Shown here in pieces: positions 8,130 to 62,707 of a stretch of DNA of 64,000 bases. The notes under the pieces are model-generated. The model saw only the letters and a list, made by a program, of their open reading frames with translations, was not told the DNA's origin and did not search any database. Source of the stretch: Escherichia coli. Lineage in GTDB: Bacteria > Pseudomonadota > Gammaproteobacteria > Enterobacterales > Enterobacteriaceae. Position 1 is the stretch's first letter. Every line of letters begins with the position of its first letter. The stretch lies in the NCBI RefSeq assembly GCF_044324785.1, contig NZ_CP172127.1; one strand, 5' to 3'. Both the position numbers and the translations under genes were made by a program.

Positions 8130-8903
8130 TCACTCATACTCTGCCCGACACATCGCCACCGTATCTTCTATCAGACGGCGCGCTACGGTGCCGGGCGGCG
8201 GGAGTAACGGCAAATCGTCATAGCGATACCAGTTCGCCTCGAGCAATTCTTTCGGGTCGATAACGATCTCGCCGCTGTCGTATTCTGCCATAAACGCGGT
8301 CATTAAAGACTGAGGAAACGGCCACGGCTGGGAAGTCACGTAACGCAAGTTTTTAACTTTAATTCCGCTCTCTTCCATCACTTCCCGCGCGACAGCCTGC
8401 TCGAGGGTTTCGCCCACTTCGACGAATCCGGCAAGTACCGTATGGACACCGTTACGATGGCGGGTATGCTGGGCGAGGAGGATCGAATCATCGCGACGGA
8501 TGGCAACAATAATGCAGGGGGCGATTTGCGGATAGTAACGCTCACGGCAATGGCTGCACAGCATCGCCCATTCGGTTTTGCTTGGATACATTTCATGCCC
8601 GCAGTAACCACAGTATTTATGCGATCGGTAAAACTCCGCCAGTTGCACGCCACGTCCGGCCAGTTGAAACAGCCCAACATCGAGATCAATGACCTGACGT
8701 ACCGACCCCATATCGTGACGACGCTGCTGTTGTATTAACCAAACAGGTTCCCCCTGCCATTCGCCGATTTGTATTGCGCGCTGACCCACAAGATCGAAAT
8801 TTGCCGCTTCGCCATATGGCAATTCTCCCTTCGGCAACCATAATTTTTGTTCATGGCTGACGACCCACCAGCCGTGATCTAATTTTTCAATTATACGATC
8901 CAT
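8130..8903 (-). CDS. nudC: NADH pyrophosphatase (Nudix hydrolase)
   Basis: 257 aa; zinc-ribbon CGYCG...CSHC and Nudix box ([23 protein letters not shown]). Confidence 0.92.
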
Positions 8904-8997
8904 AGCTCTTGCACTACCTTTGCATCACTGGCATGTTTAACATGGTTTTTACATTTCTCACTGAGCAGTTTTTGAATACAAACTTGCGGAGTCAATC

Positions 8998-9474
8998 ATG
9001 CTTAACCAGCTCGATAACCTGACGGAGCGCGTCAGAGGAAGTAACAAACTGGTTGATCGCTGGCTACATGTACGTAAGCATCTGCTCGTGGCTTACTACA
9101 ATCTGGTTGGCATTAAGCCTGGCAAAGAATCGTACATGAGGCTAAACGAAAAAGCCCTTGATGATTTTTGTCAGAGCCTGGTCGATTACTTGTCTGCCGG
9201 GCATTTCAGTATTTATGAGCGCATTCTTCATAAGCTGGAAGGCAACGGGCAACTCGCGCGCGCCGCGAAGATTTGGCCGCAACTCGAAGCCAATACCCAA
9301 CAGATTATGGATTACTACGATTCCAGCCTGGAAACCGCCATCGATCACGATAATTACCTTGAGTTTCAACAGGTTTTATCTGACATCGGCGAGGCGCTGG
9401 AAGCACGCTTTGTGCTGGAAGATAAGCTGATTCTGCTGGTGCTTGACGCCGCCCGCGTCAAACATCCTGCTTGA
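8998..9474 (+). CDS. rsd: regulator of sigma D (anti-sigma70)
   Basis: 158 aa MLNQLDNLTERV...; divergent from nudC, upstream of thiC. Confidence 0.92.
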   Translation: MLNQLDNLTERVRGSNKLVDRWLHVRKHLLVAYYNLVGIKPGKESYMRLNEKALDDFCQSLVDYLSAGHFSIYERILHKLEGNGQLARAAKIWPQLEANTQQIMDYYDSSLETAIDHDNYLEFQQVLSDIGEALEARFVLEDKLILLVLDAARVKHPA

Positions 9475-9509
9475 GTTCTGCGCTGTTAACGCGTAATTTA
9501 CATTCAACG

Positions 9510-9640
9510 CCCCGTTTGTGGGGGCTAATTTCTTGTCGGAGTGCCTTAACTGGCTGAGACCGTTTATTCGGGATCCGCGGAACCTGATCAGGCTAATACC
9601 TGCGAAGGGAACAAGAGTTAATCTGCTATCGCATCGCCCC
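9510..9640 (+). ncRNA. TPP riboswitch (THI element) in thiC leader
   Basis: Conserved CTGAGA...ACCTGATCaGGcTAATACCtGCGAAGGGAACA core directly upstream of thiC. Confidence 0.85.
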
Positions 9641-9704
9641 TGCGGCGATCGTCTCTTGCTTCATCCGTCGTCTGACAAGCCACGTCCTTAACTTTTTGGA
9701 ATGA

Positions 9705-12230
<2,526 letters not shown>

Positions 12231-12238
<8 letters not shown>

Positions 12239-12968
12239 CCGTGATTTTATGCGTTATAGCCGCCAAATCCTGCTCGACGATATCGCTCTTGACGGGCAGC
12301 AAAAACTGCTCGACAGCCAGGTGCTGATTATTGGTCTTGGCGGGCTGGGTACACCTGCTGCGCTGTACCTGGCGGGTGCTGGCGTCGGGACGCTGGTACT
12401 GGCAGATAACGACGATGTGCATTTAAGCAATCTGCAACGACAAATCCTCTTTACCACTGAAGATATCGATCGCCCGAAATCGCAGGTCAGCCAACAGCGA
12501 CTGACACAGTTGAATCCCGATATTCAACTGACAGCACTACAACAACGGTTAACGGGTGAGGCGCAAGCCGATGTGGTGCTCGACTGTACCGACAATATGG
12601 CGACTCGTCAGGAGATTAATACCGCCTGCGTGGCACTCAACACGCCGCTTATCACCGCCAGCGCGGTCGGATTTGGCGGTCAGTTGATGGTACTGACGCC
12701 GCCCTGGGAGCAGGGGTGTTACCGCTGCCTGTGGCCAGATAACCAGGAGCCTGAACGCAACTGCCGCACGGCGGGCGTGGTTGGCCCGGTGGTCGGGGTT
12801 ATGGGCACTTTGCAGGCACTGGAAGCCATTAAGTTATTAAGCGGTATAGAGACGCCTGCGGGAGAACTCCGACTGTTCGACGGTAAGTCGAGCCAGTGGC
12901 GCAGCCTGGCTTTGCGCCGCGCCAGTGGTTGCCCGGTATGCGGAGGAAGCAATGCAGATCCTGTTTAA
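12231..12968 (+). CDS. thiF: ThiS adenylyltransferase
   Basis: Start at [15 protein letters not shown] inside ORF 12138..12968; GLGGLG nucleotide-binding motif; C-terminal CxxC. Confidence 0.9.
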
Positions 12969-13152
12969 CGATCAACCGATGCAGTGCGCCGCCGGGCAAA
13001 CGGTTCACGAACTACTGGAGCAACTCGACCAACGACAAGCGGGCGCGGCTCTGGCGATTAATCAGCAAATCGTCCCGCGTGAGCAGTGGGCGCAACATAT
13101 CGTGCAGGATGGCGACCAGATCCTGCTTTTTCAGGTTATTGCAGGGGGTTGA
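12952..13152 (+). CDS. thiS: sulfur-carrier protein ThiS
   Basis: 66 aa MQILFNDQ... ending in GG; start at internal Met of ORF 12925..13152. Confidence 0.9.
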
Positions 13153-43996: not shown

Positions 43997-45397
43997 ATGC
44001 CACATTCCTACGATTACGATGCCATAGTAATAGGTTCCGGCCCCGGCGGCGAAGGCGCTGCAATGGGCCTGGTTAAGCAAGGTGCGCGCGTCGCAGTTAT
44101 CGAGCGTTATCAAAATGTTGGCGGCGGTTGCACCCACTGGGGTACCATCCCGTCGAAAGCTCTCCGTCACGCCGTCAGCCGCATTATAGAATTTAATCAA
44201 AACCCACTTTACAGCGACCATTCGCGACTGCTCCGCTCTTCTTTTGCCGATATCCTTAACCATGCCGATAACGTGATTAATCAACAAACGCGCATGCGTC
44301 AGGGATTTTACGAACGTAATCACTGTGAAATATTGCAGGGAAACGCTCGCTTTGTTGACGAGCATACGCTGGCGCTGGATTGCCCGGACGGCAGCGTCGA
44401 AACACTAACCGCTGAAAAATTTGTTATTGCCTGTGGCTCTCGTCCATATCATCCAACAGATGTTGATTTCACCCATCCACGCATTTACGACAGCGACTCA
44501 ATTCTTAGCATGCACCACGAACCGCGCCATGTGCTGATTTACGGTGCTGGAGTGATCGGCTGTGAATATGCGTCGATCTTCCGCGGTATGGATGTAAAAG
44601 TGGATCTGATCAATACCCGCGATCGCCTGCTGGCATTTCTCGATCAAGAGATGTCAGATTCTCTCTCCTATCACTTCTGGAACAGTGGTGTAGTGATTCG
44701 TCACAACGAAGAGTACGAGAAGATCGAAGGCTGTGACGACGGTGTGATCATGCATCTGAAGTCGGGTAAAAAACTGAAAGCTGACTGCCTGCTCTATGCC
44801 AACGGTCGTACCGGTAATACCGATTCGCTGGCGTTACAGAACATTGGGCTGGAAACTGACAGTCGCGGACAGCTGAAGGTCAACAGCATGTATCAGACCG
44901 CACAGCCGCACGTTTACGCGGTGGGCGACGTGATTGGTTATCCGAGCCTGGCGTCGGCGGCCTATGACCAGGGGCGCATTGCCGCGCAGGCGCTGGTGAA
45001 AGGTGAAGCCACCGCTCATCTGATTGAAGATATCCCTACCGGCATTTACACCATCCCGGAAATCAGCTCTGTGGGCAAAACCGAACAGCAGCTGACCGCG
45101 ATGAAAGTGCCATATGAAGTGGGCCGCGCCCAGTTTAAACATCTGGCACGCGCACAAATCGTCGGCATGAACGTGGGCACGCTGAAAATTTTGTTCCATC
45201 GGGAAACGAAAGAGATTCTGGGTATTCACTGCTTTGGTGAGCGCGCTGCCGAAATTATTCATATCGGTCAGGCGATTATGGAACAGAAAGGTGGCGGCAA
45301 CACTATTGAGTACTTCGTCAACACCACCTTTAACTACCCGACGATGGCGGAAGCCTATCGGGTAGCTGCGTTAAACGGTTTAAACCGCCTTTTTTAA
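43997..45397 (+). CDS. sthA: soluble pyridine nucleotide transhydrogenase
   Basis: 466 aa [25 protein letters not shown]...; FAD/NAD Rossmann motifs. Confidence 0.96.
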
Positions 45398-46297
45398 CAC
45401 TTTATCGAAATGGCCATCCATTCTTGCGCGGATGGCCTCTGCCAGCTGCTCATAGCGGCTGCGCAGCGGTGAGCCAGGACGATAAACCAGCCCAATAGTG
45501 CGGCGTGGTTCCGGCTTAATGCACGGCAGATAAACAACCCCATCGCGTTTGCGCTCCGGCGGCACAGCCAGCGCTGGCAATAAAGTGATCCCGCTACCTG
45601 CCGCCACCATGTTGCGCAGCGTCTCCAGGCTGGTCGCGCGGAAGTGTGTATCTTCATCTGCCCCGGCTTCAAAGCAGAAACCCATTGCCTGATCGCGCAA
45701 ACAGTGACCGTCTTCCAGCATCAGCAGTTTTTCCCCTGCCAGATCGGCCATCGGTACGCATTCGCGGTTCGCCCACGGGTGATCTTCATAGATAGCCAGC
45801 AACATTGGCTCATCAAACAACGGCACTTCAATGAATGCTTCGCTCTCTTTCACCAGCGCGAGGATCACGCAATCGAGTTTGCCGCTGTCCAGTTGCGCCA
45901 GTAACTGGTGGGTCTGTGCTTCATGCAGATACATTTCCAGCTTTGGAAAGGTCTGGTGCAGCATCGGGATAATATGCGGTAGCAGGTACGGCCCGACCGT
46001 GGGAATCAAACCAATATGCAGCGGCCCGGACATGGTCTCACCCTGCTGGCTTGCCATCTCTTTAAGGACTTTCACCTCACGCAGCACGGTACGCGCCTGA
46101 TCCACCAGCAGCATTCCCGCCTGGGTGAACAACACTTTACGGCTGGTCCGCTCCAGCAACATCACGCCCAGCTCATCTTCCAGCTTACGAATTTGCCCGC
46201 TAAGCGTCGGCTGGCTAACGTGGCAGGAGTCTGCCGCACGCCGAAAATGGCGGTGTTCAGCCAATGCCACCAGGTACTCAAGATCACGAATATTCAT
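45380..46297 (-). CDS. oxyR: LysR-family hydrogen peroxide-inducible regulator
   Basis: 305 aa from [44 protein letters not shown] (internal Met of ORF ending 46342). Confidence 0.97.
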
Positions 46298-46392
46298 TAT
46301 CCATCCTCCATCGCCACGATAGTTCATGGCGATAGGTAGCATAGCAATGAACGATTATCCCTATCAAGCATTCTGACTGATAATTGCTCACA
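46298..46392. promoter_or_regulatory. oxyR-oxyS divergent promoter / OxyR binding region
   Basis: Intergenic region between divergent oxyR and oxyS starts. Confidence 0.7.
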
Positions 46393-46548: not shown

Positions 46549-47832
46549 TTACTCAATCCGATCTTTGACAATAAAGAAGTAACACAGCGCCCCGGTGAAC
46601 GTCACACAGGCCGCGATAACCAGCGCCAGATTAAACGAGTGCGTGGTATCCACTACCCAACCGGTTACGATCGGAGCAAAGGAAGCAAAAACAAAACTGC
46701 CAAAGTTTTGAATCCCGGCGATGGAAGCCACTTTTGTTTCTGACACCATCACCTGCACCAGTCCCCATGCAGATGTTCCCGCGAAATGCACGCAGAACAG
46801 CGCCATTGAGATAAACGCTACCGCCTGGGCTGGCGAGGAGGATTGCACGACCAGCAACGTGCCTAATGCCGACATCATCAAACCGCAGACAATAGCCGTT
46901 TTACGCGTCTTCGCCAGGTCGTAGCCTTTTTTCGCCAGCCGATCGACAACAATACCGTTAACCCACATCCCAACCGCCGCCGCGAGGAAAGGAATCGCCG
47001 CCACCCAACCGGTTTTCGCCAGACTGAAACCTTGTTCGGCCTGCAAATAACCGGGCAACCACGCGATGTAGAGCCAGCCTGTATAGTTGACGCCAGAGAA
47101 ACCTAAAATCATCCCCCAGGTTGTCCGATGCTTAAACAGCGCCAGCCACTCGCTAAATTGTAATTGTGGACGCGGTTTAACCGGCGCGGAGAGATAGGTC
47201 CGTTCTTCGTCGGTCAGGACAAACTGCGCCCGGTTGCGATACCACGCGTACCAACAGATCCCAACCAGAATCCCCGCCACGCCGATGATGACGAACATTG
47301 CCCGCCAGCCCCATGCCAGCTGCATCAATACAAGAGCAGGAGGCGCAATAGCCTGACCGATAACGGTAGATGAGTTAAAAATCCCCAGCGCCGTGCCGCG
47401 TTCTTTTTGCGCATACCAGTCGGTGATCGACTTTACTCCCGCAGGCATAAATGGCGCTTCGCCAATACTCAAACCAATACGCATTAAAATAAAGTGGCTA
47501 AAAGAATTAACCATTCCTGTTAATGCCTGCATTAATGACCAGAATATTAAGCCTGCGCCTAAAACTATTCGTGGGCCAAAGCGGTCTAGCAAAATACCGG
47601 AAGGGAGTTGTGAAAAACCATAAGACAGAGAAAAGGCAGAAAGCAAAACGCCAAATTCTGTCGCCGATAATCCTAACTCGCCACGAATCGCTTCGCCTGC
47701 CACGCTCAATGACGAACGGTCGAGGAAATTAACGATCCCCGCCATAAATAATAAAACCAGGGTCACTGTCTGAATACGACGAATCCGTTGCGGTTTATTA
47801 CCCGCAACACTGGTTGACACATCAACGTCCAT
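46549..47832 (-). CDS. MFS transporter, anion:cation symporter type (DgoT/ExuT/GudP-like acid-sugar permease)
   Basis: 427 aa, about 12 predicted TM helices; GLFLDRFG-like motif (LLDRFGPR); immediately downstream of the dehydratase gene. Confidence 0.85.
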   Translation of the reverse strand: MDVDVSTSVAGNKPQRIRRIQTVTLVLLFMAGIVNFLDRSSLSVAGEAIRGELGLSATEFGVLLSAFSLSYGFSQLPSGILLDRFGPRIVLGAGLIFWSLMQALTGMVNSFSHFILMRIGLSIGEAPFMPAGVKSITDWYAQKERGTALGIFNSSTVIGQAIAPPALVLMQLAWGWRAMFVIIGVAGILVGICWYAWYRNRAQFVLTDEERTYLSAPVKPRPQLQFSEWLALFKHRTTWGMILGFSGVNYTGWLYIAWLPGYLQAEQGFSLAKTGWVAAIPFLAAAVGMWVNGIVVDRLAKKGYDLAKTRKTAIVCGLMMSALGTLLVVQSSSPAQAVAFISMALFCVHFAGTSAWGLVQVMVSETKVASIAGIQNFGSFVFASFAPIVTGWVVDTTHSFNLALVIAACVTFTGALCYFFIVKDRIE

Positions 47833-48897: not shown

Positions 48898-48952
48898 GGT
48901 GATGCTGCCAACTTACTGATTTAGTGTATGATGGTGTTTTTGAGGTGCTCCA

Positions 48953-49228
48953 GTGGCTTCTGTTTCTATCAGCTGTCCCTCCTGTTCAGCTACTGACGGG
49001 GTGGTGCGTAACGGCAAAAGCACCGCCGGACATCAGCGCTATCTCTGCTCTCACTGCCGTAAAACATGGCAACTGCAGTTCACTTACACCGCTTCTCAAC
49101 CCGGTACGCACCAGAAAATCATTGATATGGCCATGAATGGCGTTGGATGCCGGGCAACTGCCCGCATTATGGGCGTTGGCCTCAACACGATTTTACGTCA
49201 CTTAAAAAACTCAGGCCGCAGTCGGTAA
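48953..49228 (+). CDS. insA: IS1 InsA
   Basis: 91 aa [43 protein letters not shown]... zinc-finger/HTH protein. Confidence 0.95.
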
Positions 49229-49650
49229 CCTCGCGCATACAGCCGGGCAGTGACGTCATCGTCTGCGCGGAAATGGACGAACAGTGGGGCTATGTCGGGG
49301 CTAAATCGCGCCAGCGCTGGCTGTTTTACGCGTATGACAGTCTCCGGAAGACGGTTGTTGCGCACGTATTCGGTGAACGCACTATGGCGACGCTGGGGCG
49401 TCTTATGAGCCTGCTGTCACCCTTTGACGTGGTGATATGGATGACGGATGGCTGGCCGCTGTATGAATCCCGCCTGAAGGGAAAGCTGCACGTAATCAGC
49501 AAGCGATATACGCAGCGAATTGAGCGGCATAACCTGAATCTGAGGCAGCACCTGGCACGGCTGGGACGGAAGTCGCTGTCGTTTTCAAAATCGGTGGAGC
49601 TGCATGACAAAGTCATCGGGCATTATCTGAACATAAAACACTATCAATAA
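49147..49650 (+). CDS. insB: IS1 InsB frame (expressed as InsAB' transposase by -1 frameshift)
   Basis: 167 aa ORF overlapping insA 3' end; A6C slippery motif TTAAAAAACTC at about 49198. Confidence 0.93.
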
Positions 49651-49665
49651 GTTGGAGTCATTACC

Positions 49666-50378: not shown

Positions 50379-51857
50379 TCAAACAACGGAACTCAGCGCA
50401 CTGGCAACCTGTTTAAAGCGAGCAAACCGTCGCCTGAGCATGTGTGCTTTTTCTACATTCGGTTCAAGACGAATCACGTTGAGATGCGTGGCCTTCATGG
50501 CCTGTTTGAATCCAGAATAAGCCCCTCCTCCTACTGCCGCACACATTGCAGCCGCTCTACAACCTGACTGTTCAATATCGACAATTTCAAGAGGCATGTT
50601 GCTGGCATCACAAAACATCTGCATCCAGATTCTGGAATGCGTTGGCCCGCCAGAGAAACGAATCGTTTGCAATGACTTATCAATCTCAATAAGACGGTCC
50701 TGATGCAACAAATGAGAAAAGACAATGCCCTGATAAATCGCGTACACCAAATCTTCTCTTTTATGATGCCCACACAGCCCCAAAAATCCCCCGCTTAATG
50801 CCTCATGGTAATTCGAGCCAAACAACCACGGGAAAAAGAGAATATCATTCTGCTTCTCATACCCTCGTTCCACCCACTCATTAATCACCCGATAGCTGTC
50901 AGGAAGATCCGGTAAAAATTGCTGCAAGAACCATGTCAAATTACTGGCTGATGTAGGGCTTCCCTCATGGGCGAAAAATGTACCTGGAATGCTAAATTTC
51001 CCCCATACATAGGGATAATCAGAAGGAATAATGCGATCAAAGATACGCGTTGCAATTGACCAGGTGCCAGCAACCGCACTTAACGTTGTACTGTCATAGA
51101 TGCCAGAAGTGAGCGCCGCACCAACGACATCAAAAACACCACCAAAAACAGGCGTTCCGGCGAGAAGCCCACATTGGCTGGCTGCTTCAGATGTCACAAC
51201 CCCTGCTAAATCAGCGGAGCCAATAATATCGGGAACCTTACCCGCAACTTCCTTAATCTCAAATAGGCGAAAAAGTTCAGCATCATAAGCACTGGTATAT
51301 TGATTATAAAAATTACTGCCTGAAATATTGGTTTCTTCACAAGCCAGTTTGCCAGTAAGCCGTGAACGTATGTAATCATGAACCATCAAAATGGTTCCGA
51401 TGCGGCCATAATTGTCAGTCTCATGTTTTTTCAACCAATGCAATAGTGCTACAGGGTGCGATGGCCAGAGCTGTTGCAGACTACGGTGATAGCTTTCGCG
51501 GTCAATTCCTTGTTCTTTCCAGCTTGCAACCAGTTGTTGTGCGCGAGAATCAGAGGAAACAATGCCGTATCGTAAGGGCTTACCTTGCCGGTCGAGCAGG
51601 TACAAACCTTTACCATGAGCAGAAAAACTGATGCCATCAATCTGACTCGCAGTAATATTGTTCTCTGACATCGACAGTGAAATGACCTGGCACGTTACCT
51701 TCCATAACGCCTCCATGTCGCGTTCGCAAAAACCAGGACATGGGCTTAACAGAGGTAACACTTGCGAAGAGACACCTATTTCACGTCCTTCTGCCGTATA
51801 AATTCCCGCTTTGGTTTCTGTACCACCTAAATCGACACCAATAAAATACCGCTCCAT
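50379..51857 (-). CDS. FGGY-family carbohydrate kinase, L-xylulokinase (LyxK/SgbK)-like
   Basis: 492 aa; N-terminal GVDLGGT, conserved HEGSPTSASNLTWF, FFPWLFGSN, GGPTHSRIWMQMF blocks resembling E. coli LyxK. Confidence 0.85.
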   Translation of the reverse strand: MERYFIGVDLGGTETKAGIYTAEGREIGVSSQVLPLLSPCPGFCERDMEALWKVTCQVISLSMSENNITASQIDGISFSAHGKGLYLLDRQGKPLRYGIVSSDSRAQQLVASWKEQGIDRESYHRSLQQLWPSHPVALLHWLKKHETDNYGRIGTILMVHDYIRSRLTGKLACEETNISGSNFYNQYTSAYDAELFRLFEIKEVAGKVPDIIGSADLAGVVTSEAASQCGLLAGTPVFGGVFDVVGAALTSGIYDSTTLSAVAGTWSIATRIFDRIIPSDYPYVWGKFSIPGTFFAHEGSPTSASNLTWFLQQFLPDLPDSYRVINEWVERGYEKQNDILFFPWLFGSNYHEALSGGFLGLCGHHKREDLVYAIYQGIVFSHLLHQDRLIEIDKSLQTIRFSGGPTHSRIWMQMFCDASNMPLEIVDIEQSGCRAAAMCAAVGGGAYSGFKQAMKATHLNVIRLEPNVEKAHMLRRRFARFKQVASALSSVV

Positions 51858-51873
51858 GATCCCTCCTTAGTTT

Positions 51874-52737
51874 CTAAATATTATCCCAGCCGGCAAGGCG
51901 CATTTTCTCTTCAATCCATTGACGTGCATGAATAATTTCTAATAGAGGTTCCGTCGCTTTTTCTGTCCACATTTCTATCAGAAACGTTCCGCGATAATTA
52001 AGATTACGCAGAATCTTAAATAATTTAATAAAATCTACACACCCTTCACCAAAAGGAACGTCACGAAATTGCCCTGGAGAATCAGGCGTTACTGGGTACG
52101 TATCTTTAAGATGGATTGCGGCAATTCGATCAATCCCCTTTACCAGCTCACTTTCCAGTTCATTACCCCATGCGGTCAGATTGCCAACATCCGGATAAAC
52201 GGTAAACCAAGGGGAATTAATTTTTGTATCCAGGACTTTCCATTTACTAATAGAATTAATAAATGGCGTATCCATGATTTCTACAGCACACATAACTTGT
52301 GCCGCTGCGGCCTGTTCAGCTGTCCAGGCCATCGCATCTTCAAACCAGGCGATAGTTTCTTCATTCTGCGGCTCATAATAAACGTCATAGCCTGCCAGTT
52401 GGATTGTTCGAATCCCCAAATCCTGCGCCAGGCGTAACGCCTTCAACATAATCGTACGCGCCTGCTGACGAGTATCTCTATCATGGCTACCAAATGGAAA
52501 ACGCCGGTGAGCAGACAGGCACATTGTCGGAATACGGATCCCCGTTTGCTGAATGGCGCTAATAAGCTCCATACGCTCGGTGAGCGACCAGTCCAGGCGG
52601 GCGAGTCGTTCATCATTCTCATCTACCGACATCTCAACAAAATCAAAACCGCAAGATTTAGCCAGGGCTAGTTTCTCTACCCAACTGGTATTCCTGGGTA
52701 GCGCTTTTTCATAAATACCTAACGGGTGGCGTCGCAT
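51874..52737 (-). CDS. L-ribulose-5-phosphate 3-epimerase (UlaE/SgbU family, TIM-barrel)
   Basis: 287 aa; PLGIYEKALP...GFDFVEMSVDE.DERL.RLDWS...MCLSAHRRFP.GS...IQLAGYDVYY motifs nearly colinear with UlaE. Confidence 0.88.
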   Translation of the reverse strand: MRRHPLGIYEKALPRNTSWVEKLALAKSCGFDFVEMSVDENDERLARLDWSLTERMELISAIQQTGIRIPTMCLSAHRRFPFGSHDRDTRQQARTIMLKALRLAQDLGIRTIQLAGYDVYYEPQNEETIAWFEDAMAWTAEQAAAAQVMCAVEIMDTPFINSISKWKVLDTKINSPWFTVYPDVGNLTAWGNELESELVKGIDRIAAIHLKDTYPVTPDSPGQFRDVPFGEGCVDFIKLFKILRNLNYRGTFLIEMWTEKATEPLLEIIHARQWIEEKMRLAGWDNI

Positions 52738-53783
52738 TATTTTCCCTCACGAGTGATCAATTGTTGTTGAAAGATTTTCCGGCTCTTATTCATGTCACGC
52801 TGCAACTGCCATTTTTGTTTGATGAATTTAAATGCCAATGCGGCGATCAATGTGATCCCCCATACCGCCAGATTGAAATGCAAACTAATTCCCAACAGAC
52901 TAAGGCCGGTAGCAATAACCTGAAGCACAAGTAAGGCACAAAAAACATGACTGACTTTACCCGCCCCACCGAATGGATCTGTGCCTCCCAATACAATTGC
53001 AAGAACCGTCAAGAGCAAATAGGAATCGCCATAGCCCATACGCGCCGAATTAAATCGCGCGAGCATAATAAGACCTGCTAATACACACAACATGCTGGAT
53101 ATAGCATATATAGCAATTAATACGCGGTCGGTGCGAATACCGCTAAACCATGTGGCGTTAATATTACTGCCACACATATAAATCGTTTTTCCCGTACGGG
53201 TTTTGCCGAGGAACAGAGCTAAAGCAACGGTGGTGACGATAAAAATCATCATCGGTACTGGGATCCCCATGATAACTTCAGACCCAATACTGCGGACTAC
53301 TGGTGGCATACCACTTAAAGCTGCCCCCTTAGTCAGGTAAATACCGATACCACTAATAATGGTCATGCTACCCAATGTGACCAAAATAGGGTGAGCGCCT
53401 ATATGAGAAATAATTAACCCAGTAATAGCTCCAATGATGATGGCAATAAGCATCGCCCCGACAATAGCCAGGAAGAGCCAAAACAACTGGCTACCTGTAG
53501 ATGCATCTGCGGGTACATATTGAATCAACACCCAGGCCATAAACAGGCTGGTCAGATTCGCAGTACCGATGATTGCCAGATTAAGCCCCCCGCTCAACAT
53601 CGGTATAAACATCGCAAACGTGAGCAACCCAAGCTCTGGCAATTGAAATGCAATGCTCAGAAAAGTATTGTCGGTGAAAAAACGCCCCGGCATTGCCAGA
53701 CTAAATAACACCACCGCAATAAAACATATTGATAATAAGCCTGAACTGGTACCATCTAGTGGAAAAAATATCCGCTTGTTCAT
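52737..53783 (-). CDS. sugar ABC transporter permease (RbsC/YjfF-like)
   Basis: Polytopic membrane protein; start taken at MNKRIFF (ORF extends to 53813, overlapping upstream permease). Confidence 0.8.
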   Translation of the reverse strand: MNKRIFFPLDGTSSGLLSICFIAVVLFSLAMPGRFFTDNTFLSIAFQLPELGLLTFAMFIPMLSGGLNLAIIGTANLTSLFMAWVLIQYVPADASTGSQLFWLFLAIVGAMLIAIIIGAITGLIISHIGAHPILVTLGSMTIISGIGIYLTKGAALSGMPPVVRSIGSEVIMGIPVPMMIFIVTTVALALFLGKTRTGKTIYMCGSNINATWFSGIRTDRVLIAIYAISSMLCVLAGLIMLARFNSARMGYGDSYLLLTVLAIVLGGTDPFGGAGKVSHVFCALLVLQVIATGLSLLGISLHFNLAVWGITLIAALAFKFIKQKWQLQRDMNKSRKIFQQQLITREGK

Positions 53784-53796
53784 TTCGATCCTCCCG

Positions 53797-54789
53797 TTAG
53801 ACGAAACCAACATCAGTTTCTTTACGCTTTTTGTAATGGGTCACACAAATCGCCGAGACAATAACCACCCCAATAACGATATTGACGAAATAACTCGAGA
53901 CACCAATCAAATTAAGGCCGTTTTTAAGAATACCGATAAGAAATACGCCCATAAGCGTACCAATGACCGTACCACGTCCGCCTGATAAACTGGCACCGCC
54001 CAATACCGCTGCAGCCAGCACATCCAACTCTCCGCCAACCAATGCATTCGGCACAACTTCACTCATACGGTAAGCTTGCAGCATTCCACCAATTGCTGCA
54101 GCGGCACCAAGATAACCGTAAGCAAACAGATAAATTAGCGACACCCGAATCCCAATACGTCTTGCTGATTCGGTATTCCCTCCCACGGCATAAAGCTGAC
54201 GCCCAATATGGGTTTTGTTCATTATCACCCACGTCAGAAATGCCATTCCCAGCATAACCACTAACGGTAATCCGATCTGGTAATCTTCTCCGCCAAATTC
54301 AAAACTCAGGAAAGAACGCTGCGTAATCCACCAATCCGGTAAATCGTAAATACTGTGACCATTAGTCAACCACATCAACATACCGAACAGTAACGACTGC
54401 ATACTAATCGTAATGATGATAGAAACGACATTAAGGTAATAAATAAGAATAGCGTTTATCAAACCAAAAATGATGCCAAAAAAAACAGCAAACACCAGGC
54501 AGAAAAATGGATTTGATAGCGTTTCATTAAGCAGTAACGACGCCACAACATATTGCACAACCGAAGCTACTGCTGCAAAAGAGATATCAATTCCGCCAGT
54601 AACCAATACGACAAATAATCCGAGGGCGAAAATACCCGTTACGGCATAACTCTCCGAGAGATCGAGCAAGTTCTGTATTGATAAAAACTCATCGCTCATG
54701 ATGGAAAAAAATACCAGCATGAGAACAATGACCCATCCTAACCAAGCTTCGACTGAACGAGGAAACCGCAGCCGCATAAAGCTAACCAT
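53797..54789 (-). CDS. sugar ABC transporter permease (RbsC/YtfT-like)
   Basis: 330 aa polytopic membrane protein; start overlaps ATPase stop. Confidence 0.8.
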   Translation of the reverse strand: MVSFMRLRFPRSVEAWLGWVIVLMLVFFSIMSDEFLSIQNLLDLSESYAVTGIFALGLFVVLVTGGIDISFAAVASVVQYVVASLLLNETLSNPFFCLVFAVFFGIIFGLINAILIYYLNVVSIIITISMQSLLFGMLMWLTNGHSIYDLPDWWITQRSFLSFEFGGEDYQIGLPLVVMLGMAFLTWVIMNKTHIGRQLYAVGGNTESARRIGIRVSLIYLFAYGYLGAAAAIGGMLQAYRMSEVVPNALVGGELDVLAAAVLGGASLSGGRGTVIGTLMGVFLIGILKNGLNLIGVSSYFVNIVIGVVIVSAICVTHYKKRKETDVGFV

Positions 54790-56299
54790 TAATCACCTCC
54801 GCCAACTGCTGCTCGGTATAATTCGAAGGCAACAGCTCATGAATAATCTTTCCGCGCTTCATATGAAAAATACGATCGCAGTTATAATAAGCTTCTGGTG
54901 CTTCATCAGTAATTAATATCACTGAAATACCCACACCTGAAAGCCGATGAATAAGCTGGTAAATACTATCTTTTGCGCCAATATCTACACCTACCGTTGG
55001 CGCATCCAGAATTAAAACCTTAGGTCGTGTTAAAATCCATTTAGCCAGGACAACCTTTTGTTGATTGCCACCAGATAGCGTTGAAAGTGGATTATTTGGA
55101 TCGGTGACCTTAATATCCAAATCCTGGATCCACTCCTTGACTAAGGTTTCTTTTCGATTTTCATCAATAAACCCCGATGGCGTCTTTAAACGATCCAGAA
55201 TCGAGAGCACCATATTATCGCTGATAGATTGGGGTAATACGGCCCCCAGTGTCAGGCGATCTTCTGAAACATATGCTATTCCCAGTTTTACCGCATGCGT
55301 GTTGTCTTTAATTGTAACGGGCTTACCTTCAAGATAAATATCACCACTATCTGCTCGAGTAATACCGAAAAGACTCAATGCTAATTCGGTTCTCCCCGCA
55401 CCAAGTAAACCACACAATCCCAGAACCTCGCCTTGGTGTAGTTTTAGAGATACATCTTCAAATTGCCCTTTTCTGCATAATTTTTTTAGTTCAAGAACTA
55501 CTTTACCTTCAACGCTATTTGGTAGTTTTTTCTGGTGGACTATAGTTTTTCCGGTCATTAACTCAGTAATATCGCCTGGAGAAAGTTGATTGGCAGCCCA
55601 CGTTCCAATTATCTCTCCATCACGGATGACCGTAATTCGGTCTGAGATTTCCTTAACTTCATCAAGGCGGTGGCTAACAAAAACTACGGTAATATTTTTA
55701 TCGCGTAAGTAATTCACTGTGCGTAGTAATTGATTAACTTCAGTGCGCGTCAATGACGCCGTTGGCTCGTCCATGATGACTAACCGGGCATCGGCAATCA
55801 GAGCCCGGCAAATAGCGACCTGTTGGCGTTGTGCAATCGGCAAATGTTGTACTAACGCATCAGGATCGAGATTGAATTCCAGTTCCTGAATTATTTTCTG
55901 TGATACATCTCGAAGTTGTTTTTTTCTGTGCAGCCCTAAATATCCCTTCAGGTTGTATTCAAAAGCGATATTTTCAGCCACAGAAAGATTTGGGAATAAA
56001 GAAAGATCCTGATATATCACCTGAATACCCAGTTCCCGAGCTTTATCAGGAGAAAGACGAGTCCAGGACTTACCATCTATAATAATTTCACTTCCCGAAT
56101 CAGGAACATAAACACCACACAGCGTTTTGATCAGAGTACTTTTACCACACCCATTCGCACCAGCAAGACAATGAACCTCACCTTTATTTAAGGTAAGATT
56201 GATATTTTTTAGAGCCCTATGGCCACCGAAACTTTTCGTTAGTGACCTTAGCGTCACTAATGGTTGCTCCGCATTCTTCTCTATAATATGAGGCATCAT
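54782..56299 (-). CDS. sugar ABC transporter ATP-binding protein (duplicated NBD, RbsA/YtfR-like)
   Basis: 505 aa; Walker A GANGCGKST in first NBD, LSGG signature in the second (LSGGNQQK), two NBDs. Confidence 0.88.
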   Translation of the reverse strand: MMPHIIEKNAEQPLVTLRSLTKSFGGHRALKNINLTLNKGEVHCLAGANGCGKSTLIKTLCGVYVPDSGSEIIIDGKSWTRLSPDKARELGIQVIYQDLSLFPNLSVAENIAFEYNLKGYLGLHRKKQLRDVSQKIIQELEFNLDPDALVQHLPIAQRQQVAICRALIADARLVIMDEPTASLTRTEVNQLLRTVNYLRDKNITVVFVSHRLDEVKEISDRITVIRDGEIIGTWAANQLSPGDITELMTGKTIVHQKKLPNSVEGKVVLELKKLCRKGQFEDVSLKLHQGEVLGLCGLLGAGRTELALSLFGITRADSGDIYLEGKPVTIKDNTHAVKLGIAYVSEDRLTLGAVLPQSISDNMVLSILDRLKTPSGFIDENRKETLVKEWIQDLDIKVTDPNNPLSTLSGGNQQKVVLAKWILTRPKVLILDAPTVGVDIGAKDSIYQLIHRLSGVGISVILITDEAPEAYYNCDRIFHMKRGKIIHELLPSNYTEQQLAEVING

Positions 56300-56362
56300 A
56301 ATATTCCTGAATACGACTAAAGGAATTCCGGGTCAAATTTGACCCGGTGATTTACGGTAAAA

Positions 56363-57367
56363 TTACAAGCCTAACTTCACTAAATGTCGTGTATTTTCAA
56401 GATCGAGCTTTTCTGGATTATCACTATAAATAGTGTTGTTATTAACCTTGATCTCGCCCATATCACCGATTTTTACACCGTCTTTAATAGGTTCACCGTT
56501 CATCATTGCCGTCGCAACCTGGACAAAAACCTTACCCGCAATCATAGGGTTTGAAATATATCCCCCATCAATGGCGCCTTTTTCGAGTAGCTTAATTCCC
56601 TGACCTGGAGTGAAGGTTCCAAAAACGCAAATTGCGTCATTTTTCTTCCGCTTATCAATAGCACGCCCCGCACCAATTGGTCCTTGTGAACCAAATGACA
56701 TAATGCCTTTAAGATCTTTATATTTAGACATTAAATCGTTCGTCGTGCGCATTGAATCATCCACCGATTCAGCAACACCAAAACGATCTTCAACCAACGT
56801 CATATTTGGATAATGTTCTTTTTGATAAGCAATCGCGGCATTGGCCCAGTCATTTACCAAAGGCACGGTCAGACTGCCGACAAACATGGCGTATTTACCT
56901 TCTTCGCCCATGCACTTCGCCATATCTTTCATATGATTGGCACCCATTGTCTGGGTATTTAACAACTCAAAATCCCAATCTGCATTTTTTTGATCTGGTG
57001 ATTCGTGGGTAATAACTTTAATACCGGCTTCTTGTGCACGCTTAAGTACAGGTTCAAGAACCTTTGCATCGTTAGGAACAACCCCAATAACATCCACTTT
57101 TCGTGCAATTAAATCTTCAATCGCCCGAACCTGTTCAGCTGGATCTGCCGTTGTAGGGCCGACCTGCCATGCATCAACCCCCAATAGTTTTCCTTCATCT
57201 TTAATGCCTTGTTCCATCACATTAAACCAGGGAATGCCACCGACTTTTACTACTACCCCCATCGTAAAAGGTTTATTCGCTTTTTGTGATGTTACAGTCT
57301 GATCAGCCCATGCAGCAGTGGAAGATAATACGGTAGCAATAAGGCAGGGTAAGATTAATTTTTTCAT
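56363..57367 (-). CDS. periplasmic sugar-binding protein (PBP type I, RbsB/YtfQ-like)
   Basis: 334 aa; signal peptide MKKLILPCLIATVLSSTAAWA; first gene of ABC operon. Confidence 0.82.
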   Translation of the reverse strand: MKKLILPCLIATVLSSTAAWADQTVTSQKANKPFTMGVVVKVGGIPWFNVMEQGIKDEGKLLGVDAWQVGPTTADPAEQVRAIEDLIARKVDVIGVVPNDAKVLEPVLKRAQEAGIKVITHESPDQKNADWDFELLNTQTMGANHMKDMAKCMGEEGKYAMFVGSLTVPLVNDWANAAIAYQKEHYPNMTLVEDRFGVAESVDDSMRTTNDLMSKYKDLKGIMSFGSQGPIGAGRAIDKRKKNDAICVFGTFTPGQGIKLLEKGAIDGGYISNPMIAGKVFVQVATAMMNGEPIKDGVKIGDMGEIKVNNNTIYSDNPEKLDLENTRHLVKLGL

Positions 57368-57390
57368 CGTAATTTCCTTAAGAAATAGTT

Positions 57391-57430
57391 CAGGTGTCAG
57401 GAAAACTCGATATAATATCGACCTGACTAT
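57391..57430. promoter_or_regulatory. palindromic candidate operator/promoter upstream of ABC operon
   Basis: Perfect 15-bp palindrome TCGATATAATATCGA flanked by GTCAGG / CCTGAC half-sites, 30-70 bp upstream of SBP start; contains TATAAT. Confidence 0.4.
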
Positions 57431-57489
57431 TTATATAATTTATAATCCCTTAGGCATTGATTAATAATTTAGACAATAAATAATGCCTA

Positions 57490-58299
57490 TTATTTATCAA
57501 CCTCCACAATGTTTAATTGTGGAAATTGTGTTCGATACCGAGTATCTGTACAAACATTAGTCACCAGAATATCGATTTCATCCAGCGTGCATATTTTACT
57601 AAATGCATACTGTTCAAACTTACTGGAGTCGACCAGCAATATTTTTTGTCCTGACACCTGAAGCATCACCTGTTTAAGTCTGGCATTAATTTCACTGCCA
57701 TCGCGGACACCATTCCCCAGATTCAACCCCTGGCATGAAAAGAAAAAACTGTTGATTTGAAAATTTCGGATCGCCCCCTCTGCAACCGGGCCATGAAAAT
57801 CATCATGTCGCTCAGAATACTCACCACCGATACCAATAATTCGAACTCGATCACGGCAAGCCAACGCCTGAATTATCCGTAATGAATTTGTAACTACAGT
57901 AACATCTATATCGGGAATTTGACGAGCTAAAAACCAACAAGTACTACTGTTATCCATTAAAATACAATCACCAGGGTGAATAAATTGCAATGCGGCCTTC
58001 GCAATTCTGGCTTTTATATCAGGATTTTCTTCAGTCCGTTTACGGAATGATTCCGCACGATCGATACTATTATCTTGCCACGCATTATCGGCGAGCATAA
58101 CCGGAGCGCTATCAGATGAATCCAGAGCGACCGCGCCACCAAAGCTACGGATTAACTTTTTGTTGCGCTCCAGTACCGTTAAATCCCGACGAATTGTCTC
58201 AGGAGACGCTTTAAATAATCGTGATAATTCTGTTACCTGTACAGCACCTTGTTTTTGTACATGTGCGCATATCATTTTATGGCGCTCTGCCTGCAACAT
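57490..58299 (-). CDS. DeoR-family transcriptional regulator (sugar-phosphate sensing type)
   Basis: 269 aa; N-terminal HTH (VTELSRLFKASPETIRRDLTVLE) and C-terminal DeoR-C sugar-phosphate binding domain. Confidence 0.85.
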   Translation of the reverse strand: MLQAERHKMICAHVQKQGAVQVTELSRLFKASPETIRRDLTVLERNKKLIRSFGGAVALDSSDSAPVMLADNAWQDNSIDRAESFRKRTEENPDIKARIAKAALQFIHPGDCILMDNSSTCWFLARQIPDIDVTVVTNSLRIIQALACRDRVRIIGIGGEYSERHDDFHGPVAEGAIRNFQINSFFFSCQGLNLGNGVRDGSEINARLKQVMLQVSGQKILLVDSSKFEQYAFSKICTLDEIDILVTNVCTDTRYRTQFPQLNIVEVDK

Positions 58300-58752
58300 A
58301 GTATCGGTCCGTTATTATCAAATTAGCATGCTTATATAATTAACTGTTCCCTCATAAAATAAAGTGATAGGAATCAAGATTCATTTTATAAATATAATCG
58401 CAAACAGAAATGGTGATCTTTACCACAAATTAAATTGAGAATATTCTACTATTGGACATTTTTTTGAGATATACGTCACTAAATAAGCTTTATTCTGTCA
58501 CCTGACGAAAAATTTAAATGCAAAAACAAAAATAATCGGGCATAGCAATCTCTTCCATTCATGACCGAATACGCCCGAATAAAACCGTTTACGCCCACTT
58601 ACCCTCTTTCATTGCCTTCTTACATGCCTTGAATATTTTACATTTCTTATATTCAGCGTAATTTAGGCAACATAATTTACGAGCAAAAATAGCCAAAACC
58701 CAAAAGTTAAAGTTTATTTATATAATACATACAGATTATCGTGGAGTTAAAA

Positions 58753-59435
58753 ATGGATACGCTAAAGGAAAAAGTTCTTGCTGCGAATTTATCACTACCC
58801 CTTCATCAGTTAGTGACGTTTACCTGGGGAAATGTTAGCGGTATTGATCGCGAAAAAGGTGTCATGGTTATTAAACCTTCTGGGGTCGAATACAGCCAAA
58901 TGGGCAGGTGGTAGTGGATTTACAAAGTGGTGAAGTTATTGATGGACACAGGAAACCCTCTTCAGACACAGATACTCATCTGGCGCTATACCGTGCTTTC
59001 CCGGATATTGGAGGTATCGTTCATACCCATTCCCGACACGCCACAATATGGGCTCAGGCCGGAAAAGATCTCACGGCCTTTGGGACAACCCATGCAGATT
59101 ATTTCTACGGCACTATCCCCTGTACACGCCCCATGAAGGATGACGAAATTAATGGACAATATGAATATGAAACGGGGCGAGTGATTATTGAAACGTTCAG
59201 GCAACGAGAAATATCTCCCGCTGACATTCCGGCTGTTTTAGTAAACAGTCATGGCCCCTTTGCCTGGGGAACTGATCCCGCGAACGCCGTGCATAACGCC
59301 GTTGTACTTGAAGAAATCGCCTATATGAATCTCTTTACACAACAGCTACACCCCCATCTTACGGCTATTCAACAGCCTCTACTGGATAAGCATTTTTTAC
59401 GCAAGCATGGTGCCAATGCTTATTACGGGCAGTAA
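58753..59435 (+). pseudogene. L-ribulose-5-phosphate 4-epimerase (AraD/SgbE/UlaF class II aldolase family), apparent frameshift
   Basis: Frame 1 [51 protein letters not shown] then stop at 58910..58912; continues in another frame [21 protein letters not shown]...[14 protein letters not shown]...[18 protein letters not shown]. Confidence 0.8.
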
Positions 59436-59484: not shown

Positions 59485-60858
59485 TTACCCCAACCGCGCC
59501 CTTGCAAAAGCAATCGCCTGCGCCACCTGCTGCGGTGAGACGCCGCCTTTTGCAGCACGCTTGTCGAGGCACGATTGCAGCGACAGAATCGGATAGACAT
59601 CTTCGCCAATCACCTGGCTGAATTTCTGCAACTCACTGAGCGGCAGATCTTCCAGCGGTTTGCCCTGACGAATGGCTTCCACCACCGCTTCACCAACAAT
59701 ATGGTGCGCCTCGCGGAACGGTACGCCTTTCGCCACCAGGTAATCCGCCAGTTCAGTGGCGTTCGCATACCCCTGCTGCGCCGCTTCCTGGCAACGTGGA
59801 CATTTCACCTGAATGCCGTCCAGCACCAGCGCCGCCATATGCAAGCAGTCCAGCCAGGTATCGAGCGCGTCGAACAGACCTTCTTTGTCTTCCTGCATAT
59901 CTTTGTTGTAAGCCAGCGGCAAACCTTTCAGCGTCATCATCATGCCGGTTAACGCCCCCTGCACCCGACCGCATTTACCGCGAATCAGCTCCAGCGCATC
60001 CGGGTTTTTCTTCTGCGGCATTAATGATGAACCTGAAGTCACGCGGTCAGAAAGCTCCACAAATCCCGCTTCGCCGGTGTTAAAGAAAATCAGATCTTCA
60101 GCAAAACGCGACAGATGCACCATGCCGATAGCGGCAGCAGAAAGCAGTTCCAGCACATGATCACGGTCAGAAACGCTGTCGAGACTGTTACGGGTCGCCG
60201 AAGCAAAGCCCAGCCAGCCTGCTAACTGTTCACGGTCGATTTCATAGGCCGTTCCCGCCAGTGCGCCACAGCCTAACGGGCTGACATCCAGACGCTTAAG
60301 CGCGTCCTGCAAACGGCTTTCATCACGCGCCAGCATCTCAACGTAGGCCAGGCACCAGTGCGCGAAAGTCACCGGTTGAGCGCGTTGCAGGTGGGTGTAA
60401 CCTGGCATTACCGCGTCCTGATTGTTTTGTGCGGTTTCCACCAGCGCCGATTGCAGCTGCCGGTTAGCCGTCAGTAACTCGCTAACGGTATCTTTGCACC
60501 ACAGTTTCAGGTCAGTCGCGACCTGGTCATTACGGCTACGCCCGGTGTGCAGTTTTTTGCCTAACTGACCCACTTTGTCGATCAATTTGCCTTCCACCCA
60601 GCTATGGATATCTTCGGCGTCGCTTTCAAGGATTTGTTGTGGCCTGGCGCGAACATCTTCCAGCAGCACGTTCAGCGCCTCTTCCAGTTGCGCCTGTTCT
60701 TCTGCGGTCAACACACCGACCGTTACCAGGGCTTTGGACCAGGCCACAGAGCCAACAATATCCTGCTCCGCCAGACGGTAATCAAAGCGCAGTGAGTCGT
60801 TGAATTGTTTGAACCGTTGATCTGCTGCCTGGGTAAAACGCCCGCCCCAAAGTGCCAT
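59485..60858 (-). CDS. argH: argininosuccinate lyase
   Basis: 457 aa [44 protein letters not shown]... Confidence 0.97.
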
Positions 60859-60918
60859 AACTCTGTTTCCTTATTTTGAAATTCAATGCCGGAAAGCTGC
60901 GCCTCCGGCCAACAAAAC

Positions 60919-61695
60919 TTAAGCTAAAATCCGCGTACCCATCGGCATACCGTTAAACAGTGCCGGAAGCTGTTCCGCATGACGCCAGGAGGCGATATCC
61001 ACCGGGCGGCCCAGCGTGCGTGCAGCATCCAGCGCCGCGTTCACTTTCACTATCATGCCGTCAGTAATAATGCCCTGCTCAATCAGTTGTTCTGCTTTCG
61101 CGGCGGTCATTTCGGCAATGCGTTGCCCTTTGCCGTCGAGAATGCCACTGACGTCGGAGAGCAAAATCAGATCCGCGCCCAGCGTTGCCGCCAGCGCCGT
61201 TGCCGCCTGATCGGCATTGACGTTCATCAGTTGCCCTTCGTCTGTTACGCCAATGGAGCTGACCACCGGTAGATAACCGTTCTCCAGCAAGGAGTTGATA
61301 AGCTTAGGCGAACCTGGCTGCGCCAGTCCAACATGGCCTAACTCTTCATCAAGCTGGGTCACTTTGACGCTGTCGCCGTCACCGAGAAACAAACCTACGG
61401 CCGCAATCTGATGTTTCTTCGCCCATGCCAGCAGGGTTTTATTTGCCGTTCCCGCCAGTGCTCCGGTGATAATGTCAATCTGATCAGCAGGCGTCACCCG
61501 CAGGCCGTTTTTCTTTTTCACCGGCAGATTCAGCCCTTTCATCAGCTCATCCACCACGCAACCGCCGCCGTGCACAATCACCAGCGGACGCTGATGTGAC
61601 ACACGATAATTCACCAGTGCACTAAACAGACGTTCCAGCGCCTCTTCACTATCCAGCAGTACGCCGCCCAGTTTGATAATTAATGGATTCATCAT
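60919..61695 (-). CDS. argB: acetylglutamate kinase
   Basis: 258 aa from [24 protein letters not shown] (internal Met of ORF ending 61728). Confidence 0.95.
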
Positions 61696-61702
61696 TGCAC
61701 CC

Positions 61703-62707
61703 TTAAATAAGAGACTGCGTTTCCGCATAGCCGAAACGAATATTGGCGCACTGTACCGCTTGTGCCGCCGCGCCTTTCAGTAAGTTGTCTTCGGTCGCCA
61801 CAATAATCAGATGCTCGCCCTGAACGGCAAACCCGATATCGCAAAATGGCAGCCCAACGACATTTTTCAGCGCCGGAACGCCTTTGTCATACAGTCGCAC
61901 CAGCGGTTTATGGGCATACGCCTGCTGTAACACTTGCGCGACTTGCGCCTGGGTCACACCCGGTTTCAGGCGGCAGGTAATGGTTTCGAGAATGCCGCGC
62001 GGGAAATTGCCCAGATGCGGGGTGAAGATAACGTCAGCACCGAGGTGTGTGGCGATCTCTGGTTGATGGCGATGGGTAAAGACGCCATACGGTTGCAGGC
62101 TAACTTCACAAAAACTATTTGAAATCGCTGCCTTACGTCCTGCACCGCTCACGCCGCTGGTGGCGTTGATTACCGGCCACTGATTGAGGTCAAGAAGATC
62201 GGCATCAATCAACGGTTTCAGCGCCAGCTGTGCCGCCGTCGGATAACAGCCTGGCACGGCAATCAAGTTCGCTTCTTTTAATTTATTACCGCACCACTCC
62301 GCCAGACCGTAGGCTGCCTGTTCCAGCAGTTCCGGATACTGATGGGTAAAGCCGTAATATTTTTCATAGAAGGTGGCGTCGTTAACACGAAACGCGCCGG
62401 AAAGGTCGAACACCACGCAGCCCGCTTCAAGAAATTGCGGCGCTAAATCGTGGCTAACTTCATGGGCGGTGGCGAGAAACACCACGTCCACCCCTGGGCT
62501 AAACTCGCTGATATCCGACATCGGCTGCAACGGCAGATCAACGATGCCTTTGAGCTGCGGATGCAAATCGGAGATTAACTTTCCCGCATCATTGCTTTGC
62601 GCTGAAACAGTCAAAGCGGTTATGTTCATATGCGGATGGCGATTTACATAGGTCACTAGCTCTGCGCCAGCGTAGCCGCTGGCACCCACAATCAGCGTAT
62701 TCAACAT
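61703..62707 (-). CDS. argC: N-acetyl-gamma-glutamyl-phosphate reductase
   Basis: 334 aa [54 protein letters not shown]... Confidence 0.96.

Follow-up and report, generated by a model that had tools for sequence, protein, structure and literature searches.

Which sugar is taken up and consumed by the gene cassette that lies between argH and oxyR in a minority of Escherichia coli chromosomes? In the genome studied here, the cassette occupies positions 50379-59435 of a 64,000-nucleotide (nt) stretch of chromosome (contig NZ_CP172127.1, assembly GCF_044324785.1), which we refer to as the window. An earlier note on this DNA had described an ATP-binding cassette (ABC) importer coupled to the lower part of an L-xylulose pathway and had considered the substrate not obvious. 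Our analysis supports an ABC-fed lower pathway of that kind and narrows the substrate to L-xylulose, because the substrate-binding protein (SBP) belongs to a family that binds a free ketopentofuranose and because the cassette makes up a self-contained unit in each of six genera. We consider it reasonably probable that the locus is a self-contained, horizontally mobile, DeoR-controlled cassette for the uptake and catabolism of free L-xylulose.

The eight genes recognized by the earlier note were all recovered at the same positions. They encode an SBP, a sugar ABC ATPase with tandem nucleotide-binding domains (NBDs), two permeases, a 3-epimerase, a kinase, a DeoR-type regulator and, divergently, a 4-epimerase. 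Transcription of the minus strand would proceed in the order DeoR regulator, SBP, ATPase, permease, permease, 3-epimerase and FGGY-family kinase. From the ATPase onward, adjacent genes either overlap (by 8 and 1 nt) or are separated by gaps of 13-16 nt, a spacing that fits the single operon that had been claimed. The uptake genes are those of an ABC importer and not of a tripartite ATP-independent periplasmic (TRAP; YiaMNO) transporter or a phosphotransferase system (PTS; UlaABC). Additionally, no open reading frame (ORF) for a decarboxylase of 3-keto-L-gulonate-6-phosphate (SgbH/UlaD) was found within 50379-59435.

Both epimerases fall into the families that had been expected of them. The 3-epimerase (51874-52737, minus strand, 287 amino acids) reached 458.5 bits on the NCBIfam equivalog TIGR00542 (cut-off 272.15, covering residues 2-283 of 287) and 476 bits on NF009689 (cut-off 200), scores that assign it to the SgbU/UlaE family of L-xylulose-5-phosphate/L-ribulose-5-phosphate 3-epimerases. 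It is 71% identical to SgbU of strain K-12, and in the pairwise alignment the segments AVEIMDT, YPDVGNL, IHLKDT and FLIEMW are unchanged. We take these four motifs, from UlaE structures, to hold the Glu/Asp/His/Glu metal or catalytic ligands. The gene for the L-ribulose-5-phosphate 4-epimerase (58753-59435, plus strand, 231 codons if intact) is a pseudogene in the present strain, as described below. We analyzed the intact allele of strain N3, the closest genome, which is 71% identical to K-12 SgbE and scored above the curated cut-offs of both TIGR00760 (413.9 versus 389.1 bits) and NF009002 (431.8 versus 386), placing it by profile match in the SgbE/AraD branch of the class II aldolase family. 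Chance does not account for these family assignments: the epimerases reached 458 and 414 bits in NCBIfam, and pairwise comparison with K-12 LyxK, SgbU and SgbE gave E-values of 1e-127 to 1e-156.

The predicted L-xylulokinase (50379-51857, minus strand, 492 amino acids) aligns from end to end with K-12 LyxK at 42% identity and 410 bits. By sequence comparison LyxK is its closest characterized relative, rather than a rhamnulokinase or a xylulokinase, which agrees with the earlier description of the protein as LyxK-like. An identical protein (P0121) bears the FGGY N- and C-terminal domains PF00370 and PF02782, and JGI and some NCBI records label homologues as 'L-xylulokinase' or '3-keto-L-gulonate kinase'. 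In a search of the PDB, the solved FGGY kinases (for gluconate, autoinducer 2 (AI-2), xylulose and glycerol) were all distant, at no more than 130 bits. The top NCBIfam match of the cassette kinase was XylB, at 201 bits and under the cut-off. However, authentic K-12 LyxK also fails every NCBIfam model and gives the same weak ranking of XylB, then LsrK, then GntK or GlpK. Because NCBIfam holds no LyxK model and LyxK itself reaches no equivalog, the missing equivalog of the cassette kinase is uninformative.

The SBP (56363-57367, minus strand, 334 amino acids) is a predicted L-xylulose binder of the AauA, or ketopentose-binding, family. Its best matches in the PDB were 3d02 (287.6 bits) and 9i1m (286.5 bits), at roughly 55% identity. 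Structure 9i1m is AauA of enterohaemorrhagic E. coli (EHEC), crystallized with alpha-D-ribulofuranose; AauA has a dissociation constant of 2 µM for D-ribulose, and its binding of L-arabinose is 200-fold weaker (Cottam et al. 2025, PMC12307932). Thus, the nearest relative that is both solved and characterized binds a ketopentose and not a hexose, so the hexose specificity that would have spoken against a pentulose pathway was not what we found. AauA contacts its ligand through K37, W43, E118, H167, E196 and S223, of which H167 stacks on the sugar and hydrogen-bonds to its C2 and C4 hydroxyls (PMC12307932). In an ungapped alignment, five of these six contacts are kept in the cassette protein, as K41 (for K37), W47 (W43), E122 (E118), E200 (E196) and S227 (S223). 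The sole differing contact is H167, which is replaced by V171.

To place this substitution, we compared the 120 closest homologues of the SBP. Val171 occurs solely in the orthogroup that is at least 79% identical to the cassette protein (P0001-P0013), and His is found in every other homologue listed (53-68% identity). L-xylulose is the C4 epimer of D-ribulose and has no other difference from it. A valine at the C4 contact together with retention of the C3 contacts is what a change from D-ribulose to L-xylulose would predict, and the clade-specific replacement is suggestive, though not decisive, of such a switch. In Sodalis ligni, Pectobacterium parmentieri and Vibrio rumoiensis, relatives of the His type (58-65% identity) sit with ketose modules of other kinds. 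In Pectobacterium, ROK and PfkB kinases accompany an AlsE-like ribulose-phosphate 3-epimerase; in Vibrio, a 3-epimerase of the AlsE-like family comes with PfkB and FGGY kinases; and in Sodalis, a FucA-like aldolase is joined by PfkB and a rhamnulokinase-like FGGY kinase. Since the neighbors of the His-type proteins are different ketose modules, the SBP clade tracks the pathway, and the AauA family looks like a general family of ketose-furanose binders with several specificities.

Further evidence comes from gene context in other genomes. All eight genes, with order and orientation kept, were found in five other genera. The cassette adjoins the fuc operon in Yersinia enterocolitica, hyp genes in Brenneria goodwinii and rtc genes in Pantoea coffeiphila; the eight genes are also present in Providencia, and in Citrobacter amalonaticus (2391-11485 of its locus) they stand exactly between argH and oxyR. 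Thus, E. coli and Citrobacter have one site in common, and the neighborhoods are otherwise unrelated. No dehydrogenase, isomerase or decarboxylase is encoded inside the cassette in E. coli or in any of the five other genera, which extends to all six the absence of a decarboxylase and dehydrogenase remarked on earlier for this locus. The unit would therefore be self-sufficient, the imported compound being the one that is phosphorylated. Additionally, the 3-epimerase is retained in all the other genera at 74-87% identity, which argues that the product of the kinase needs 3-epimerization and is thus L-xylulose-5-phosphate rather than L-ribulose-5-phosphate. As for the rate of divergence of the components, the kinase is the fastest evolving in every genus (60-72% identity, versus 83-92% for the SBP). 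Seven of the C. amalonaticus proteins are 84-92% identical to those of E. coli and its kinase only 68%, as it is to that of Yersinia, Brenneria or Pantoea.

The following mechanism would account for these observations. The periplasmic SBP would capture L-xylulofuranose, and the two permeases with the tandem-NBD ATPase would import L-xylulose. The LyxK-like kinase would then form L-xylulose-5-phosphate, the SgbU-like 3-epimerase would convert it to L-ribulose-5-phosphate, and the SgbE-like 4-epimerase would yield D-xylulose-5-phosphate, which enters the pentose phosphate pathway. A repressor of the DeoR family would bind repeats of the form TTCGGKCAT and would be released by a phosphorylated intermediate, probably L-xylulose-5-phosphate, and CRP-like sites would add catabolite control.

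How does this scheme compare with known systems? The predicted chain from L-xylulose through L-xylulose-5-phosphate and L-ribulose-5-phosphate to D-xylulose-5-phosphate is the one seen in the K-12 yiaK-S (lyxK-sgbH-sgbU-sgbE) and ulaDEF loci, to which the cassette proteins are 42% (LyxK), 71% (SgbU) and 71% (SgbE) identical. Unlike those loci, however, the cassette lacks a decarboxylase of 3-keto-L-gulonate-6-phosphate, the YiaK reductase and TRAP (YiaMNO) or PTS (UlaABC) uptake, and instead has a DeoR-type regulator, a CUT2-type importer of the AauA family and a divergent 4-epimerase gene. With the Aau system of EHEC and the Rbl system of Citrobacter rodentium it has in common the SBP family (286 bits to AauA) and the CUT2 arrangement of an SBP, a tandem-NBD ATPase and two permeases. 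The specificity of Rbl is for D-ribulose, and its operon includes a D-ribulokinase (Cottam et al. 2025, PMC12307932), so that, as in the cassette, an ABC importer is coupled in one operon to a dedicated FGGY kinase. The differences from both systems are the valine in place of His167, a kinase that is LyxK-like and not a D-ribulokinase, the genomic location and the regulator. Additionally, where the cassette has SgbU- and SgbE-type epimerases, Rbl has a KpsF-like isomerase and Aau relies on araBAD. An Lsr-like system for AI-2 was also considered and rejected, as the SBP gave only ~84 bits to LsrB and neither LsrF nor LsrG is present.

Two further loci bear on the question. A Klebsiella locus (4250-13060) resembles the cassette in its kinase (54% identity), 3-epimerase (50%), 4-epimerase (68%) and DeoR regulator (57%). 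It differs in that a polyol-type, Zn-dependent dehydrogenase is present, that there is one permease instead of two and that the SBP, of the RbsB type, is unrelated (22% identity). This locus, which is very common (829 cluster members for its kinase), seems to be uncharacterized too and is probably a pathway by which a pentitol (either xylitol or L-arabinitol) is converted to L-xylulose. Read as a pentitol-fed form of the shared lower pathway, it favors L-xylulose as the intermediate common to both loci; the cassette does not itself resemble a precursor-fed locus of this kind. In Histophilus somni, a yia-like locus links an rbs-type ABC transporter to homologues of lyxK, sgbU and araD, a precedent for an ABC-fed pathway of the sgb type; it differs from the cassette in its ribose-type SBP and in including a decarboxylase and a gluconolactonase, as for an ascorbate or gulonate-type route (PMC3224263). 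We found no paper on the cassette itself in the literature searched, which lacks many subscription-journal papers, and public annotation of its genes is generic ('FGGY-family carbohydrate kinase', 'substrate-binding domain-containing protein').

Other substrates have to be weighed against L-xylulose. The transporter could take up L-ribulose, or both L-ketopentoses, with a kinase that is mainly an L-ribulokinase and a 3-epimerase that is accessory. SBPs of the AauA family bind ketopentofuranoses, the SBP data do not separate L-xylulose from L-ribulose, and for L-ribulose the 4-epimerase alone would suffice. We nevertheless regard this as unlikely: the 3-epimerase has been kept in all six genera, the kinase is closest to LyxK and scores just 44-70 bits on ribulokinase models, and L-ribulose differs from D-ribulose at C3 as well as C4, yet the C3-contacting residues K41 and E122 are unchanged. 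Import of a precursor (xylitol, L-arabinitol or L-lyxose) that enzymes encoded elsewhere in the genome turn into L-xylulose is quite unlikely as well. The Klebsiella relative demonstrates that a pentitol-fed lower pathway exists, but it brings its own dehydrogenase and an unrelated SBP, whereas the cassette sits in five unrelated neighborhoods with no linked dehydrogenase or isomerase, and what is documented for its SBP family is binding of a ketose furanose, not of polyols.

The two remaining candidates are, in our judgment, very improbable. Yew and Gerlt reportedly found in 2002 that E. coli LyxK also phosphorylates 3-keto-L-gulonate. This activity, the '3-keto-L-gulonate kinase' labels of some databases and the ABC-fed H. 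somni locus would accord with a branch of ascorbate or gulonate catabolism, in which 3-keto-L-gulonate or 2,3-diketo-L-gulonate is imported, phosphorylated by the LyxK-like kinase and decarboxylated by the core enzymes SgbH or UlaD. However, the H. somni locus has a decarboxylase where the cassette has none in any of the six genera, and the conserved pocket, with its two glutamates E122 and E200, is ill-suited to an anionic ligand. The ~55% identity to AauA and the five retained contacts would likewise accord with a second importer of D-ribulose, similar to Aau or Rbl, that is linked to enzymes having nothing to do with the sugar it transports. Such an importer is at odds with the clade-specific change of His167 to valine at a residue contacting the C2 and C4 hydroxyls, with the lack of a D-ribulokinase or a KpsF-type isomerase as in Rbl, and with the tight, conserved operon linkage to epimerases of L-series pentulose phosphates.

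Several points weigh against free L-xylulose as the substrate. The role of every component rests on sequence comparison, not on biochemistry or genetics. A 42% identity to LyxK is too low for safe transfer of specificity within the FGGY family, and with no LyxK model in NCBIfam there is no curated threshold to apply to the kinase. The change of His to Val indicates an altered specificity but does not single out a ligand. Both the operator and the CRP sites described below are pattern-level inferences, the 9-mer of the operator by itself not being enriched in the window. Finally, the cassette is rare in E. coli (2.7% of complete genomes) and decaying in this strain, so any selective benefit is not universal.

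The remaining components of the transporter and the regulator were placed by weaker matches, as no NCBIfam equivalog was reached for the kinase, SBP, permeases, ATPase or regulator. The ATPase (54782-56299, minus strand, 505 amino acids) matched the XylG, AraG, YtfR and RbsA models over its full length at 400-450 bits, all under the equivalog cut-offs, and its orthologues bear two PF00005 domains. Permease 1 (53797-54789, minus strand, 330 amino acids) gave sub-threshold matches of the RbsC and AraH type, and permease 2 (52737-53783, minus strand) of the AlsC, RbsC and AraH type; orthologues of both carry PF02653. The length of permease 2 is 348 amino acids from the annotated start, within an ORF that reaches 53813, and it is annotated at that length in strains N3 and Z0117. 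The seven cassette genes other than that of the 4-epimerase have lengths equal to those of their annotated counterparts in N3 and Z0117EC0056. The DeoR/GlpR-family regulator (57490-58299, minus strand, 269 amino acids) gave sub-threshold matches to FucR, SrlR, AgaR and UlaR, and PF08220 and PF00455 are found in its orthologues.

Between the regulator and the 4-epimerase gene lies a divergent, AT-rich control region of 453 bp (58300-58752). It contains operator-like repeats at 58535-58580, two tandem and one inverted, of the form TTCGG[G/T]C[A/G]T, and two CRP-like sites resembling TGTGA-N6-TCACA at 58411-58427 and 58465-58480. The repeats and the CRP-like blocks have both been kept in E. coli, Yersinia, Brenneria and Pantoea, whose intergenic regions have otherwise diverged. 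On the strength of this cross-genus conservation, we propose the repeats as a candidate DeoR operator and the palindromes as candidate CRP sites. A motif search located a single exact copy of the 9-mer. Because regulators of the DeoR family usually respond to a phosphorylated intermediate of their pathway, L-xylulose-5-phosphate is the likely inducer. A scan for promoters and terminators returned no more sites than in shuffled sequence, and one terminator-like hairpin alone stood out (56328-56347, minus strand, CCGGGTCAAATTTGACCCGG). It is located within the 63 nt that separate the SBP gene from the ATPase gene and has a perfect 8-bp GC-rich stem (CCGGGTCA-AATT-TGACCCGG) with no T-run after it; it may stabilize or attenuate the transcript in favor of SBP expression.

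In the strain studied here, the divergent AraD/SgbE-like gene is present and ends at 59435 as had been described, but it is not intact. A stretch of 10 bp (TTGCAGATAT) is deleted between 58906 and 58907, so that the frame is lost after codon 51 and a stop follows at 58912-58914, leaving a C-terminal ORF of 175 codons. The 10 bp are present in all 146 of the complete E. coli genomes carrying the cassette, and the deletion is therefore a strain-specific lesion. The missing N-terminal part contains the WGNVS and KPSG segments, which in AraD help to bind the substrate phosphate, and the 175-codon remnant is unlikely to be active. With this enzyme lost, flux in the strain would rest on the core enzymes AraD, SgbE or UlaF; otherwise the cassette would be heading for loss. 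Damage by insertion sequences was also seen. In several other cassette-bearing E. coli, a copy of IS1A lies between the kinase and 3-epimerase genes (5083-5780 of the Z0117EC0056 locus), an independent disruption of the operon. In the window, the neighboring manD gene is split by IS1 (48898-49665, 768 bp, with InsA/InsB ORFs at 48953-49650), flanked by a 9-bp target duplication, GTAAGCACC. Strain N3 is without this insertion, yet its manD is annotated with an internal stop. The IS1 insertions and the frameshift in the 4-epimerase gene suggest that selection in E. coli is weak or intermittent.

Among 5426 complete E. coli genomes, the cassette was found in 146 (2.7%), chromosomal and in single copy, at 98.4-99.7% identity in the matches listed. 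The sources of these strains include humans, dogs, cats, wild birds and wastewater. The G+C content of the cassette is 0.43, compared with 0.53 for the first 46 kb of the window and 0.51 for the adjacent MFS-manD segment; the cassette is therefore a separate, foreign block. On one side it is followed by argH, argB and argC (59485-62707, minus strand). On the other side lie manD, encoding a D-mannonate dehydratase of the enolase superfamily (47899 to ~49890, minus strand; 733 bits in NCBIfam), a major facilitator superfamily (MFS) transporter of the anion-sugar type that resembles a D-galactonate transporter (46549-47832, minus strand), oxyR (45380-46342, minus strand) and sthA (43997-45397, plus strand). 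We rejected manD and the MFS gene as members of the system: their G+C content is normal, they occur as a pair in 1859 of the 5426 genomes versus 146 for the cassette, and they do not stand beside the cassette in the five other genera, including Citrobacter, where it occupies the same site. The counts of 1859 and 146 imply no fewer than three states of occupancy for the site between oxyR and argH.

The cassette is a variant assembled from known parts and not a new mechanism, and because the pathway chemistry is already established, the advance that it represents is incremental rather than conceptual. We suggest, tentatively, that it may provide the first regulon and high-affinity uptake system dedicated to free L-xylulose, a stereochemical counterpart of Aau and Rbl whose specificity was switched largely by the change of His to Val. 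L-xylulose is an intermediate of the mammalian glucuronate-xylulose pathway, from which it is excreted in urine, and of fungal L-arabinose catabolism. Additionally, L-xylulofuranose is a side chain in the O-antigen of Y. enterocolitica O:10 (PMC11380512). If the proposal is true, some Enterobacterales, including a minority lineage of E. coli, would scavenge L-xylulose from the mammalian pathway, from the pentose metabolism of fungi or plants, or from polysaccharides that contain L-xylulofuranose, and they would do so with a transporter and a binding protein that are the first known for this sugar. The theme of ketopentose scavenging, known for D-ribulose through Aau and Rbl and tied to gut colonization, would then reach a second rare pentulose. 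The pair of binding-protein clades would offer a natural experiment in SBP specificity, with a single His-to-Val switch at the contact to the C4 hydroxyl. Specific annotations would replace generic ones in several genera, and the SBP, the regulator and the importer could serve in rare-sugar biosensing or bioconversion.

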